DNA of 64,000 bases from an uncultured Gammaproteobacteria bacterium. Lineage in GTDB: Bacteria > Pseudomonadota > Gammaproteobacteria > CAWCPV01. The position numbers and the translations under genes were made by a program. This document shows positions 32,932 through 47,458 of this stretch, piece by piece; positions within the stretch are counted from its first letter, which is position 1, and the number at the start of each line of letters is the position of its first letter. A model generated the notes under the pieces. It saw only the letters and a program-made list of their open reading frames with translations. It searched no databases and was not told the origin of the DNA. The DNA lies in assembly GCA_963797555.1 (NCBI GenBank), contig CAWCPV010000003.1:96001-160000 (forward strand), read 5' to 3'.

Positions 32932-34206
32932 ATGGCAGAAATCACTCGACAACAACTGATACTCGCCCTGACCGACACCGGAGTGCGACCGCGCTTGGCG
33001 GGCGTCGATCTCAGCGGATTGGACCTGCGGTCACTCAACCTCAGCATGGCCGATCTCAGCGGCGCCAACCTGGCCGAAACAAACCTCAGCGGGGCCAACC
33101 TGAGCGGGGCTGAGCTGAGGAGAGCCAACCTGACCGAGACGGACCTGACCGGTGCGAGCCTGACCAAGGCCAGCCTCAGCAGAGTCGCCTCCGCAAAGGT
33201 CCGATTGAGCATGGCCGACCTCACCGAGGCCGACCTGACCGAGGTCCAGATGGAGGCAGCCAACCTGAGCGGGGCGGTCCTCAAGACAGCGGGTATGGCC
33301 GGAGCTCGTCTGGCGAGGGCCGTCATCACAGGCGCCGATCTGTGCGGGGCAAAGTTGAGCGGAGCGGACCTGCACGAGGCCAATCTGAGCGGGGCCAAGC
33401 TTTGCGGGACCGACCTCAAGAAGGCCACACTGAGCGGGGCCGACCTCAGTGGGGCCAATTTGTGCGGGGCTGATCTCGCCGGGGCCTACATGCTGGGGGC
33501 CAAGCTGAGCGGGGCCAATTTGTGCGGGGCCAACATCAGCGGGACCAACCTGACAGGCGCCAACTTGACCGACGCCAAAGTGTGCGGCAGCAACCTCAGT
33601 GGCGTCTTCCTGAGGGGCGGGGCTGTCCTGACCCGCTCGGACCTGAACCACGCCAACCTCTGCGGGGCAGATCTCAGCGGCGCCAATCTCGGCGCGGCGA
33701 TACTGGCAGCGACCAATCTGAGCGGGGCCAACTTGAGCGGGGCCAACCTGGAGAGAGCCGACCTGGCTTACGCCAATCTGGAAGATGTCAACTTGAGCCG
33801 CGCCAACCTGAACGGGGCCATCATGACCAAGCTCAATCTGAGCAGAACCAGCCTGGTCGGAGCCGACCTGACCCATGCATTGATGTTCGAGGCGTATATG
33901 CCCAACGCCAATCTGAGCGACGCCAACCTCAGTCATGTCAATCTACACGACGCGAATCTGAACGGGGCGGACCTGAGCCGAGCCACGCTGATCCACGCCG
34001 ATCTGACCTCTGCCGATCTCCGTGGGGCCAACCTGAAAGGCGCCCGATTGGCCCATGCCGACATGAACAGAGCCAATCTGAGCGGGGCCGACCTGACCGG
34101 TGCCGACCTGAGCGGGGCCAACCTTCGAGTCCGCTACGACGACGCCACTCGTTGGCCCGAAGGCTTCGCCCCCGGGCCTGAGGCCATTCATGTCAGCCGG
34201 TACTGA
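32932..34206 (+). CDS. Pentapeptide repeat protein
   Basis: Long A(D/N)LxG repeats over about 380 aa. C-terminal YDDATRWPEGF cap. Confidence 0.92.
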   Translation: MAEITRQQLILALTDTGVRPRLAGVDLSGLDLRSLNLSMADLSGANLAETNLSGANLSGAELRRANLTETDLTGASLTKASLSRVASAKVRLSMADLTEADLTEVQMEAANLSGAVLKTAGMAGARLARAVITGADLCGAKLSGADLHEANLSGAKLCGTDLKKATLSGADLSGANLCGADLAGAYMLGAKLSGANLCGANISGTNLTGANLTDAKVCGSNLSGVFLRGGAVLTRSDLNHANLCGADLSGANLGAAILAATNLSGANLSGANLERADLAYANLEDVNLSRANLNGAIMTKLNLSRTSLVGADLTHALMFEAYMPNANLSDANLSHVNLHDANLNGADLSRATLIHADLTSADLRGANLKGARLAHADMNRANLSGADLTGADLSGANLRVRYDDATRWPEGFAPGPEAIHVSRY

Positions 34207-43308: not shown

Positions 43309-46300
43309 TTAAACACGAAACACCTTCATCACCTCATCCCCCAGGTGATTGATGACCTTCACCGCGATCCGCCCCGACTTCGGCTTGTCGAAGGGCCGGG
43401 AAGTGTCGCTGTTGAGCGTGGCCCAGGCGTCTTCGTTGATCTCGGCTTTGAGGGTGGTCTTGAGCGCCTTGTAGGGGTCGTTGGCGCCGAGGAAGTAGGC
43501 GTGGCGGACGAAGAAGGCTTCCATGTTGTAGTCGGTGTCGATGAACCAGCAGGCGATGCCTTCGGCACCGTCGCTGCGGACTTCGCCGGTGTTGGGGTGG
43601 AAGACGTCCACGCCGTGGACGGTGACCTGTGACTTGTGGTCTGTGGTCAGTGAAAGCGGGAAATCTGCGGCGCTCAGGCTCTGGAGCGCAGCGAGCGTTT
43701 GAGTCCGTTGAGCATTCGACCAACGTCCGCCGCCTGAGCCTGTAACAGGGCAATTTTTTCCTGTGTGACCATCCCGAGTCTTTCCGCCAGTATCAAAAAC
43801 GTCTCTGTCTCCGCCAGAGAGCCGCTGGCGATCCCCAGGAACTGGAGAAACTCCCCTGTTCCCGACCGTTCCGCTCCCTCCGCGATATTCGCTGCTATCG
43901 ATACTGCCGCCCGCCTGATCTGGCTGGTCAGACCGTATTTCTCTTCCGGCGGGAACTGAGCAGAGACGCGATAGACCCTCTCGGCCAGCTCGATTGATTT
44001 CTTCCAAACTTCCAAGTCCTGATAGCTCTTTAACGTACTCATAATTCGCAACCATCCCGCCGTTTCTAGCCACTAACCACTGCCCACTGGTCACCGTAAT
44101 GTCCGGCTCGCCGAAGATGACGAAGAGGTTGCCCTTGCCGGTGTTCTTGAGGTCGTCGGCCATGTGCAGGTCGGCGTTCATGCGCGCCTTGAGCACGGGG
44201 ATGCGGCCGAGGTTCTTGAAGTCCGAGGAATGCGCGTCGTAGTTGAAGGCGCAGGCGATGAGCACGTCGAAGCCGGCATCGCCGGCCTCGCGGGCAGCGG
44301 CGACCAGATCGGGGCGCGAGACGGTGCCGAACTCGGGGCCGATGAAGATTCCAGCACGGTATCCCGAGCGGGAATCGGTGGCCTGTGACCCGTGGTCGGT
44401 GCTGGAATCAGTGGCTAGTGACTTGTGGTCGGTGGCTTGTCTTTCTCCGCTAACCACTGGCCACTGGTCACTGACCACTGTCCCAGCGGTGGTCTGTGGC
44501 CCGTGGTCAGTGGCTTGTATTGGTTTTTCCCTAATCACCGACCACTGGTCACTGGCCACTGTCCCAACGGCGCAGACCAGCTCGCCCGGCCAGGGGGTGA
44601 GCGAGGTGAAGCTGATCTTGTCGTCCTTGTGCGCTTGCTGTACGCCCGCGGTCTTGAGATTCTCCAGGATGATCTGCACAAAGTCGCGCTCCTGGCCGTA
44701 ACCCTCCGTGGGCTCGGCCGCGGTGTCGATCAGCTCGTCGTTCTCGTCCACCGCCAGCACGCGGTGCGGCGACAGGCTCTCGACGGTGAACGGCCCGGCG
44801 ACGCGGACGATTCTCTTGTCCTCATACGGCTTGTCGTAGAGGTACTCGAACCCGGCCTTGGCGGCGATGGAGGCGTCGATCTCTTTCTGTCGCGCAATCC
44901 TCGCGCTCCAGAAAGCAGTGATCAGTGACTGAGTGGCTTGTGGCCAGTTAGTGGGACGTTCGCGCGGGATTTCCCATTCTTCCAGGGTTCTTTTCTGACC
45001 ACCGGCCACGGACAACTGATCACGGAGCGATGCGAGCGTTAGCTCGTAACGCTCCCAGATGACGTTGATCTCGGCGTTGTTGGCAATGGATTTTAGGGTG
45101 ATGTGCGGCACGCGCTCGTAGACGAAGCCCTGTCTCAGTGACTCGTGGCCAGTGACTTGCGGTTTGCTTTTCAGGTCACTAGCCACTGACCACCGACCAC
45201 TGATTTCCGCTTCCTTGATCTGCCCCTCGCGGCTGTCGGCGAGCAGGTAGTAGGGGTAGCGCGCGCCCATGATGCGCGCACGGGCCAGGGCGAGGGCGAC
45301 GCGGGAGGTGTCGATGGTGATCCAGCGGCGGCCCCATTGCTCGGCGACGTAGGCGGTGGTGCCGGAGCCGCACGTGGGGTCGAGGACGAGGTCGCCGGGG
45401 TCGGTGGCCATAAGCAGGCACCGTTGGACGACCTTTTCGGATGTTTCCACAACGTATCGCTTCTCCGAGGCGAAGCCCGCAATCCCGGTGTCGCTCCATA
45501 CGTTGTCCTCAGGGAATGCCGCGAAATCATCGAAGTAGCGAACGTAGTAGAGCCCCTTGCCGGTAGAGCTCAGCCGCCCGGCTAGCCGTAGGCGGGACAT
45601 TCCAAGCTCATTTGTCTTCCAGCGCACCTTCTCAGACGGTCGTAGCGTTTGGCCCTCAAACTGTACTGGGAACCAAGATGCAGCACCCTCGCCCTTATCG
45701 CGCCCGACGCTCTGGCTCGTAAGATTATCGATTCGAAACACACGAGCCCCGCTGGGAAGTAGTGACGTCCCCGCCAGTTCCTCTGGCGAAATGCTTCGTT
45801 CAGACAAGTCTGACAGACGAACGCGCTTGTACGCGCTGCCTCCGATGCCCCCAATCTGCTTCAGCATGAGCGGCTGGTGATATTTCAGCCGGTCCCGCTG
45901 CCTTGCATAGAACAGAAGGAACGTCATAGGTGCCGGCAAGGTACTCCGATGTAGCACTAGCCGTCTTCGCAAAAATTATTTGAGACACAAAACTTTCAGA
46001 ACCAAACACTTCGTCCAGCAAACTGCGCAGCACGTGTGAGTTCTCTTCGCCAATCTGCACGAATATCGATCCGGAATCCGCCAACAAATCCCTTGCCACT
46101 GTCAGCCGATCCCGCAGATAGGTCAGGTACGAGTGAATCCCATCCCGCCAGGTATCCCGAAACGCCTTGACCTGCTCCGGCTCGCGCGTGATGTGGTCGG
46201 GGTTGCCGTCCTTCACGTCGCGGCTGGTGGTGGACCACTGGAAGTTGGAGTTGAATTTGATGCCGTAGGGCGGATCGATATAGATGCACTGCACCTTGCC

Positions 46301-46813
46301 GCGCAGCCCTTCGCGCTCGGCCAAACTGGCCATCACTTGCAGGCTGTCGCCGAGGATCATGCGGTTGGACCAGTTCTGGTCGTGGCGGTAGAACTCGGTC
46401 CTGTCCACGCCCTCGGGGATGCCGTTGAAGTCCGCGAACAAGTCGAGCTGGCGCTCGACAGTGGCTAGTGGCTCGTGGTCAGTGGCCTGTTTTCCACTAG
46501 CCACTGCCCACTGCCCACTGGCCACTGATTGACGACGCAAGTCGTCAATCAAGACCTTCGGTTGGATCTTCTCCTGGATGTAGAGCGGCGGGGCCTGAAC
46601 GACGAGGTCGGACCAGTCCTGCTCGTCCTTGCCGCGCCAGACCAGTTGCGGGTCCAGGTCCCGGTTGCGGCGCTCGTAGGCGACGCGGATGGGGTCTTGC
46701 TCCTCCTTCCGCATCACCGACTGGTATTCGGCGGTGGGGATGTTCTTGCGCGTGGCTTCGTCGTGCTTGAGGGTCGCGACGGTCTTGCTGGTCGATGTCT
46801 GCCGCTTCGCCAT
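43309..46813 (-). CDS. Type III-like (Mod, beta-class) adenine DNA methyltransferase; one frameshift near 45922; five in-frame hairpin insertions
   Basis: NRMILGDSL and YIDPPYG (motif IV) precede a variable TRD, then DPTCGSGTT (motif I). C-terminal IAVKVINHLGDEVMKV. Built from ORFs 45800-46813 and 43309-45972. Confidence 0.9.
43619..44097. mobile_element. Heptamer-repeat hairpin element enclosing the four-helix-bundle gene (site 5)
   Basis: Left arm ACG-GTGACCT-GTGACTT-GTGGTCT-GTGGTCA-GTGAAAGCGGGA. Right arm TCCCGCCGTTTC-TAGCCAC-TAACCAC-TGCCCAC-TGGTCAC-CGT. The outer 9 bp are a perfect IR. Mobility is inferred, not shown. Confidence 0.7.
43674..44042 (-). CDS. Four-helix-bundle protein (23S rRNA IVP / bAvd-like), nested inside mod in another frame
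   Basis: SYQDLEVWKKS..FPPEEKYGLTSQIRRAAVSIAANIAEG..FLGIASGSLAETET..RMLNGL is the canonical family signature. Confidence 0.92.
   Translation of the reverse strand: MSTLKSYQDLEVWKKSIELAERVYRVSAQFPPEEKYGLTSQIRRAAVSIAANIAEGAERSGTGEFLQFLGIASGSLAETETFLILAERLGMVTQEKIALLQAQAADVGRMLNGLKRSLRSRA
44376..44562. repeat. Heptamer hairpin site 4: two tandem hairpins plus a half arm
   Basis: GTGRYYN x3, then GTGRYYN x4 / NRRYCAC x4 twice. Both hairpins end in CACTGTCCCA. Confidence 0.88.
44916..45024. repeat. Heptamer hairpin site 3 (degenerate arms, about 40-nt loop)
   Basis: GTGATCA-GTGACTGA-GTGGCTT-GTGGCCA ... TGACCAC-CGGCCAC-GGACAAC-TGATCAC. Confidence 0.75.
45136..45202. repeat. Heptamer hairpin site 2
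   Basis: CA-GTGACTC-GTGGCCA-GTGACTT ... AGGTCAC-TAGCCAC-TGACCAC-CGACCAC-TG. Confidence 0.85.
46459..46527. repeat. Heptamer hairpin site 1
   Basis: CA-GTGGCTA-GTGGCTC-GTGGTCA-GTGGCCT-GTTTT-CCAC-TAGCCAC-TGCCCAC-TGCCCAC-TGGCCAC-TG. Confidence 0.9.
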
Positions 46814-46865: not shown

Positions 46866-47125
46866 CTACTTCTTCTCCCGATAGACTTCACCGCGGCGGC
46901 CTACCTTGACGGTCCCCACCAGCAGTTCAGCATCCGAGACGCTGTAAAGAACGCGGTAGTTGCCCTGCCGCACACGGTAACGCTCCTGCGCGGAGAGCTG
47001 TTCGCTTCCGAGCGGACGCGGATCGTCGCGCAAGCTTTCGATACACGCGAGGATGCGCCGCGCATCCGCGCGGGGAATGCCGCGCAGGTCCTTGGCCACC
47101 GATGGCTTGACCCGCAGATCATAGC
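46866..47125 (-). pseudogene. RelE/ParE toxin lacking its start codon
   Basis: RYDLRVKPSVAKDLRGIP..DDPRPLG..YRVRQGNYRVLYSV..VKVGRRGEVYR. Abuts the res fragment directly. Confidence 0.75.
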
Positions 47126-47241
47126 GTACGGCGTTCGATGATCCGCTGGGTCGGCTGGCCCTGCTCGTCGAGCTCCCAGTAACGAGCCGGATACTCGTAA
47201 GGAGAGTTGAGGATGGGCTGTTCGAAGAACTTGTTGTCCAT
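47119..47241 (-). pseudogene. First 40 or so codons of a type III-like restriction (Res) subunit
   Basis: MDNKFFEQPILNSPYEYPARYWELDEQGQPTQRIIERR then a stop. This is the typical N-terminus of the Res partners of this Mod family. Confidence 0.75.
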
Positions 47242-47458
47242 GTGTGGTATTTCTCTGATGGGCCGTACTGTCCCCAGCCCAAAGAGAAGGAGGTCACCCT
47301 TAGCCTTCCGTTCTTCTGTTCCGCGAGCGTACGAGATGGATCTCGGCAAGACCGTCTTAGGCCGCGTCGCCGGCTGCACAGCATCGAGTATGCTGGTAAT
47401 TACGCTCCCGCAAATCGGGCTTCGGCCCTTCTACCACCTCGCGCTTCACCCTTCCCCG

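Follow-up and report, generated by a model that had tools for sequence, protein, structure and literature searches.

A four-helix-bundle gene cassette of the intervening-sequence type nested in a DNA methyltransferase gene

Why should the gene of a DNA methyltransferase contain, inside its own reading frame, a second gene together with several hairpins built from tandem heptamers? Could such inserts be translated as part of the host protein, or do they mark a gene in decay? These questions are raised by a locus in a 64,000-nucleotide stretch, hereafter the window, of the 5.35-Mb genome of an uncultured Gammaproteobacteria bacterium (GenBank assembly GCA_963797555.1, contig CAWCPV010000003.1, positions 96,001 to 160,000 of the forward strand). 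The host gene encodes a Type III-like methyltransferase, Mod, and the nested gene a four-helix-bundle (4HB) protein. We find it likely that a cassette of the intervening-sequence (IVS) type, carrying the 4HB gene, has become fixed in Mod, that the host frame is read through it, and that cargo-less hairpins lie alongside. Judged from sequence, the feature exists, was inherited and is probably read through by ribosomes, and this copy of it is probably inactive.

The nested gene and its stem

Mod qualifies as Type III-like by PF01555 matches on both of the open frames into which it is now divided, and by motifs IV and I of an N6/N4 methyltransferase. Its closest protein, P0001, is 65-72% identical and intact. 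Reading through sites 4, 3 and 2 and the cassette is the task of the second Mod frame (Table 1).

Table 1. Features of the Mod locus, in window coordinates
Feature	Position	Strand	Evidence
Full cassette, 486 nt = 162 Mod codons, between GEPD and GVDVFHP	43615..44100	-	exactly 486 nt in 5 other public loci
5' stem arm: four heptamers and inner segment	44043..44097	-	fold; homologue pairing
3' stem arm	43612..43673	-	array search; fold; homologue pairing
4HB gene, 122 codons, ATG start, +1 frame relative to Mod	43674..44042	-	PF05635
Site 1, cargo-less heptamer hairpin, read as SVASGQWAVASGKQATDHEPLAT	46458..46528	-	absent in G001; fold z -6.4
Site 4, cargo-less heptamer hairpin, read as SGRWSVASDLKSKPQVTGHES	45135..45203	-	fold z -5.5
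Site 2, composite of five arrays F-F-R-F-R, nested or tandem hairpins	44375..44562	-	fold z -8.1
Site 3, two degenerate heptamer-like tracts around conserved Mod segment EEWEIPR; marginal	44916..45024	-	fold z -2.6
Mod N-terminal open frame, motif IV DPPY	45800..46813	-	PF01555 8e-12; tblastn with P0001, frame +1 up to LAGTYD
Mod second open frame: target-recognition region, motif I (DPTCGSGTT), C-terminal domains	43309..45972	-	PF01555 8e-14; alignments
+1 frameshift breaking Mod, between sites 1 and 4	45921..45935	-	tblastn frame change, LAGTYD to FLLFYARQRD
Res (partner restriction gene) remnant, first 33 codons only	47128..47226	-	NF046055 BPTD_3080 family, model positions 1-33 of 970
ParE-type toxin-antitoxin toxin gene in the expected place of Res, start codon not obvious	46866..47150	-	PF05016 2.4e-8

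The 486-nt insert is an IVS-type cassette, namely a 4HB gene closed by a stem of inverted heptamers. All three marks of an S23p/PF05635 cassette are present: an open reading frame (ORF) of the family, an enclosing inverted-repeat stem, and tandem heptamers in the arms. The initial annotation of the window, made from the letters alone, had recognised that one of its hairpins encloses a 4HB gene, and the profiles bear this out, with matches to PF05635 (4.1e-40), NF008911 (3.6e-43, above its cut-off) and TIGR02436 (3.9e-38); the nearest solved relative is XCC0516 (PDB 2gsc, 1.7e-25, five chains). In the minimum-energy fold of positions 43605-44105 the two arms pair with each other (z -3.4 against 100 shuffles), and the inner segment of the 5' arm pairs with the region past the 4HB stop codon, covering a GGCGGGA stretch upstream of the ATG. 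The stem consists of inverted heptamers that form about 32 pairs. It holds across seven homologues, in which 92% of its cells are paired, compared to 33-57% when the partners are slid. Six pairs have changed on both sides, and variable columns account for 34% of paired stem positions versus 81% of 4HB third positions. Both the anatomy of the cassette and the conservation of its stem are thereby demonstrated.

Two reading frames over the same bases

Which of the two frames does selection maintain? The comparison rests on six cassette sequences, which are related to one another, two of them (L053 and L054) being near-duplicates. In the nested 4HB frame dN/dS is 0.05-0.23, against 1.5-2.3 in the Mod frame over the same bases, and synonymous differences amount to 0.53-0.75 in all pairs other than L053/L054. 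By these ratios the nested gene is under purifying selection. Read in the Mod frame, the insert shows high identity at its two ends only, and its middle is not conserved. The proposal that its Mod-frame peptide is an older domain, on which the 4HB gene was overprinted, was rejected on dN/dS.

A stop in the Mod frame requires a T at a 4HB third position before an AA, AG or GA codon. Not one of the 174 junctions at risk (27-31 per sequence) carries this T, compared to 89 of 552 other third positions (16%; Fisher 6e-12, or 1e-9 without L054), and 2.1-6.0 Mod-frame stops would be expected per sequence. The equivalent frame of 23 intergenic 4HB genes contains 1-12 stops and is open in none of them, not even in the nine whose GC3 is 0.6 or higher. 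Six stops interrupt the third frame of the window cassette. An independent second case is provided by an unrelated DUF1156-type defence methyltransferase from another genome (L036:483-2696), whose cassette belongs to a second heptamer family and sits in the identical relative frame. Its host frame is open, and T occurs at none of 21 junctions at risk versus 16 of 82 other positions. Downstream of that cassette lies a second mini-hairpin.

These comparisons demonstrate that the host frame avoids stops and that the nested gene is under purifying selection, and the Mod frame appears to be kept open by selection. Because stops are avoided in this frame and the intergenic relatives are not open, ribosomes probably read Mod through the insert. 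That the inserts are tolerated as peptide, one of two possibilities raised in the initial annotation, agrees with the stop avoidance and with two in-frame remnants of the cassette, L063 (225 nt) and L064 (270 nt). We infer that a full-length Mod containing the insert is produced and functional. Weak support for disorder of the inserts comes from AF2, which assigns pLDDT below 50 to sites 2 and 4 and to 80 residues at the centre of the cassette segment in two models that are both globally poor (pLDDT 58.7 and pTM 0.30 for the second frame of the window, 54.6 and 0.33 for P0001).

The other possibility was bypass or processing at the RNA level. Inserts cut out by RNase III in the manner of an IVS, with rejoining, or passed over by the ribosome would never be translated. 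Strong stems speak for it, and so does an architecture like that of the ribosomal RNA (rRNA) IVSs that RNase III excises (PMC4990558). Removal or bypass gives no reason for 162 stop-free codons, yet stops are avoided, and the deletion remnants L063 and L064 retain the frame. Bacteria are not known to rejoin the products of RNase III, which likewise counts against it. Processing or bypass is thus not needed, would leave the open Mod frame unexplained, and seems to us exceedingly improbable.

Is the open frame then mere chance in GC-rich DNA, the insert being neutral junk in a dying gene? The window's own copy invites this view. The initial annotation had described the Mod frame as open, which is true locally at every site, but it had missed a +1 frameshift at about 45921-45935 as well as the loss of Res. 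By tblastn, genuine Mod coding of the N-terminal frame ends at this frameshift, near 45.92 kb; in four metagenome runs read cover was zero at 45.8-46.0 kb, and an assembly error is possible. Those runs yielded mainly cassette-free relatives and a few near-identical short contigs, and showed no 7-nt indels. An intact Mod ORF with an adjacent intact Res is not what this locus holds, Res being reduced to 33 codons; because Mod is frameshifted and Res deleted, the system is probably dead. The BREX locus that harbours the other hairpin cluster of this genome has decayed too. Against neutrality, the probability of meeting no stop is 0.001-0.11 per sequence and the outcome is repeated in six sequences, the intergenic controls and the third frame are closed, dN/dS of the nested gene does not exceed 0.23, and intact Mod ORFs of 1070-1250 aa occur in many genomes. 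Absence of selection is, in our judgement, very unlikely.

Two observations concern the decay itself. The target-recognition block of Mod (45440-46040) has a GC content of 0.49-0.57, below the remainder of the gene, and received no cover from relatives in the four metagenome runs; the frameshift, at GC 0.49-0.53, sits on its edge, an arrangement that fits a swapped specificity domain. At 46866-47379, the Res stub of 33 codons and the ParE-type gene resemble a deletion junction that took out Res.

Cargo-less hairpins and the history of the insert

What are the remaining sites, and did they arise here? A search for GTGRYYNGTGRYYNGTGRYY (GTGRYYN three times, at most one mismatch) returned 22 matches in the window, all within 43615-46487, whereas 100 shuffles averaged 0.07 and never exceeded 1. 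Within the window the arrays are indeed confined to this gene, as had been noticed at first sight, and in the genome as a whole they nearly are. Throughout the 5.35-Mb genome a strict expression finds 11 arrays, 9 of them inside Mod, and a looser anchor expression 23, of which 11 are inside Mod. The order of the arrays is invariant: forward, then complementary.

Sites 1, 2 and 4 are cargo-less hairpins in variable Mod loops, each a short palindromic element in frame within an ORF. Against 200 shuffles, site 1 (46455-46530; -44.6 kcal/mol) folds as RNA with z -6.4, site 4 (45132-45206) with z -5.5, and site 2 with z -8.1 as a whole (44370-44568) and -4.7 and -3.7 for its halves. The loop at site 2 measures 279 nt, compared to a modal 114 or 102 nt. 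At site 4 the loop has 99 nt in the window and 75 nt in every one of 67 cassette-free loci; apart from the window, L058 alone has it filled. The proposed full element with miniature copies in Mod loops is therefore upheld as one cassette plus cargo-less hairpins, with two amendments to the five sites first listed. Site 2 is a composite, and site 3 is weak: the pattern matches its 3' arm only, and with a mismatch, an AF2 model of the second Mod frame puts it in confident helices, and its 'loop' encodes conserved EEWEIPR, so that it is no clear or simple insert. The recurrent peptides noted at the sites are present, but they follow automatically, because three heptamers equal seven codons and the same cyclic peptide results whichever frame is read.

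Further repeats were seen elsewhere. In this genome, another methyltransferase-like ORF (DPCMGSGHF; C16:103375-103405) contains a one-sided heptamer array that its frame reads as SLTTDHRSPVTAH, and a degenerate mini-hairpin occupies the spacer upstream of a prepilin-peptidase-like ORF (C4:184749-184810). Positions 33036-34124 of the window contain long 15-nt tandem arrays (CTGAGCGGGGCCAAC-like), for which a pentapeptide-repeat gene is a guess.

Are inverted heptamers a habit of PF05635 genes in general? A search of 151 genomes of the class gave matches in 25, and the best matches, 30 loci from 24 genomes, were inspected. A strict period-7 array lies within 120 nt of 19 of the 30, and on both sides of 13; the two-sided pairs are reverse complements in 11 of 13, with a repeat unit that varies by genome. 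These counts are conservative, as the strict lag-7 detector misses degenerate arms, those of the window included. Most such cassettes lie between co-directional genes: T2SS (type II secretion system) E/F, hsdS/hsdR, carA/carB, flgI/flgJ and cas6/cas4. In another genome (L026) an opposite-strand 4HB cassette stands between cas6 and cas4, followed by cas1, along with two gene-less hairpins of the same heptamer, one of them within the cas6 ORF.

The other PF05635 copies of our genome are bracketed by inverted heptamers of a different unit, GTCGTCR. Its background is 52 strict period-7 arrays in 5.35 Mb, of which 21, all GTCGTCR, fall in a 14-kb BREX locus outside the window (C3:512001-530000), where they surround two further 4HB copies. 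This decayed locus contains the BrxL N-terminus, PglZ, a frameshifted PglX and BrxC, and at least three hairpins lie in the frame of PglX, which translates them as SSVVS.../...RRPTTDD. Both heptamer families of this genome occur almost only next to their own 4HB cassettes.

The insert is older than this genome's copy. Among the 120 Mod homologues listed by the protein search, from sources that include Thioflavicoccus (an intact Mod of 1251 aa, P0015, in T. mobilis 8321), Desulfobacterium, Limisphaerales and Rhodocyclaceae, all have an insert of 158-189 residues at the cassette site, and 115 have exactly 162 residues between GNLFVIFGEPD and GVDVFHP. Of 595 relatives among public genome loci 80 were kept, of which six carry the full cassette, two in-frame remnants and 72 none, the carriers spanning several phyla. 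The cassette is exactly 486 nt long in five of the six and 479 nt in L060; L063 and L064 are in-frame internal deletions that retain both arms and, of the nested gene, its first 34-35 codons. An unpublished genome (G140, L027) has a cassette at this Mod site too. Alignment with homologues also defines empty sites, as the initial annotation had proposed: G001 lacks the inserts, and the loop at the cassette site is 48 nt long in 54 of 77 loci measured. Also free of inserts is G039, an unpublished genome on which alone no conclusion rests.

Because P0001 shares the hairpin peptides at all five sites, the inserts predate this genome's copy. Inheritance of the arrangement is demonstrated: it came with the gene and did not form here; the picture of elements that colonise the gene in this genome was accordingly abandoned. 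The listed PLSDB plasmid matches (12 of 18) are to the flanks only, over 38-52% of the query, and none of the records reaches 80%. Immediately upstream of one cassette-bearing Mod stands a second 4HB gene of another subfamily (L055:1229-1597).

Could the arrays be a contingency switch, the gain or loss of one 7-nt unit shifting the Mod frame? Mod genes are classical phase-variable genes. The Dehalococcoidia allele L060 (4206-4240) has one heptamer fewer in its 5' arm, 479 versus 486 nt, which shifts the Mod frame and leaves the nested gene intact, and loop lengths differ by seven residues, equal to three heptamers, in several homologue pairs. Slippage, phase variation or an assembly error could each account for the 7-nt loss. 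Against a switch, the arrays are short, with 3-5 imperfect units, slippage has no need of inverted pairing, and such arrays are also found on either side of 4HB genes that lie between the genes of unrelated operons. Moreover, a one-unit change is seen in only one of eight full- or partial-cassette loci, and that from a metagenome assembly, and the window's own frameshift lies outside any array. Phase variation as the role of the arrays is quite unlikely.

The satellites, as we call the cargo-less hairpins, might also have been captured independently, from hairpin families active in past hosts, by loops that tolerate any insert. One Mod locus (L105:3335-3859, loop s3a) holds three tandem copies of an unrelated REP-like palindromic repeat, 525 nt in frame and free of stops; palindromic repeats of the RGNDN and IPAKAGIQ types, likewise read in frame, occupy the same Mod loops in P0083/P0087 and in G039, and relatives within the class possess long GTGGTCA and GTGGCTA arrays. 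Yet the satellites share the heptamer family of the cassette arms, GTGR-type arrays occur in the loops of five of nine cassette-bearing loci against three of 72 cassette-free ones (p 2e-4, on related alleles), and the heptamer families of this genome are nearly restricted to the flanks of their own 4HB cassettes. Independent capture as the whole explanation is rather unlikely; since unrelated palindromic repeats do reside in the same loops, loop tolerance is part of the story.

We favour the fixed and translated IVS-type cassette. It would be lodged in the beta-turn of the C-terminal hairpin of a Type III-like Mod and would move between phyla together with the Mod gene. One stretch of DNA would be read twice, in the Mod frame across 162 codons and in the +1 frame as the nested gene, and at the other sites permissive Mod loops would hold cargo-less hairpins from the cassette's heptamer family, also translated and found mainly in cassette-carrying alleles. 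The satellites may derive in cis from the cassette arms, and translation of Mod may melt the stem and so expose the start region of the nested gene.

Several points weigh against this reading. The window Mod is frameshifted and its Res lost, so that expression of anything here is not required. The protein-database sample consists of called ORFs and is therefore biased to open frames; the six DNA sequences of the stop-avoidance test share kinship; and the association of satellites with cassettes was likewise counted on related alleles. The hairpins replace loop residues instead of adding to them, and no clean junction and no target-site duplication was found when filled and empty Mod loops were compared. 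On the flanks, a single clade of cassette-bearing alleles is rejected (AU p 0.004), in a test weakened by a group named after the tree was seen and by base composition that differs among rows. Given that rejection, the history may have involved recombination or repeated gain or loss. Trees of conserved Mod blocks are mostly without resolution, and the cassette-free L125 sits among cassette-bearing Dehalococcoidia alleles, yet has an ordinary empty loop; homologous recombination between Mod alleles is the simplest reading.

A bolder account would make the cassette an autonomous element, whose ring-forming 4HB protein recognises its own arms as RNA or single-stranded DNA and copies arm hairpins nearby, seeding satellites in cis. 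In Mod it would have been domesticated, translation opening the stem and switching on the nested gene, and slips of single heptamers would turn the methyltransferase on and off. We regard this account as unlikely.

If the favoured reading is true, one element family able to inhabit protein genes would unite three things described separately: the intervening sequences of rRNA, heptamer hairpins that occur as orphans, and the 'four helix bundle protein' family, which is very large and has no assigned function. At the locus, selection would act on two frames over a single stretch of DNA, a clear example from bacteria that gene callers overlook. It would make the role of the 4HB protein testable in a defined setting of one gene, one stem and a methylation read-out. 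Annotators would be warned that long low-complexity stretches in defence methyltransferases may conceal a nested gene.

Relation to known systems

Does the Mod insert belong to any element already described? Type III mod genes of phasevarions resemble it in carrying, within the ORF, tandem repeats with a unit length that three does not divide. They differ in that the long, perfect and variable repeat of a phase-variable mod is replaced here by short arrays of 3-5 imperfect units arranged as hairpins, with a single one-unit variant, L060, in eight loci.

Avd, the accessory protein of diversity-generating retroelements (DGRs), shares the 4HB fold family, with matches to PF22296 (6.7e-8) and NF033474 (1.9e-7). 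The relation to Avd that the first inspection had drawn thus holds as a weak likeness, but the nested protein does not qualify as a DGR Avd: the NF033474 score is 31.3 bits, against a cut-off of 80, and no reverse-transcriptase domain was detected in the nine ORFs scanned at 39.4-48.1 kb.

Rickettsia palindromic elements (RPEs), like other intragenic MITE-like repeats, are short palindromes in frame inside ORFs, read as an extra peptide at tolerated positions (PMC10969869), and in this the Mod hairpins are alike. RPEs are scattered over many genes per genome, whereas the Mod hairpins are restricted to one gene or one defence locus, are made of tandem heptamer units and have a gene-carrying parent cassette. 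Many dispersed copies, as expected of an RPE-like element or a miniature inverted-repeat transposable element, are not seen here, 9 of 11 strict and 11 of 23 loose arrays lying in Mod alone.

In Xanthomonas, 70-75 convergent pairs of the heptamer GGGAATC are reported per genome, and heptamer repeats are also recorded in Nostoc and Calothrix (PMC4692102). Like the Mod arrays, the Xanthomonas pairs are inverted tandem heptamers able to form stem-loops. In the portion of that paper at hand they are treated as intergenic, G-quadruplex-forming repeats, intragenic read-through is not described, and the terms 'S23', 'four-helix' and 'intervening' have no matches. Nor did our literature search, which covered texts exclusive of supplementary files, find a paper on PF05635 genes that lie within protein genes or on their link to inverted heptamers.

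The architecture of the cassette is that of the ORF-bearing IVSs of 23S rRNA, a family link first drawn from the letters alone and now supported by profile matches and by PMC4990558. The Coxiella burnetii IVS, in helix 45, has an S23p ORF, a 28-bp terminal stem and three tandem heptamers (GACAGAT x3), and is excised by RNase III; Leptospira, Brucella and Xanthomonas are also named there for ORF-bearing 23S IVSs. The Mod cassette shares with these a PF05635/S23p ORF in the loop of a long stem, heptamers in the stem or 5' region, and a start region in or next to the stem. It differs in its location, within the Mod ORF and not in a 23S rRNA helix: the host is protein-coding, the insert is in frame and apparently translated, and excision by RNase III is not required. 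The IVS-type cassette is therefore already known, and its nesting in a protein gene, with probable read-through by the host frame, appears to be a new variation.

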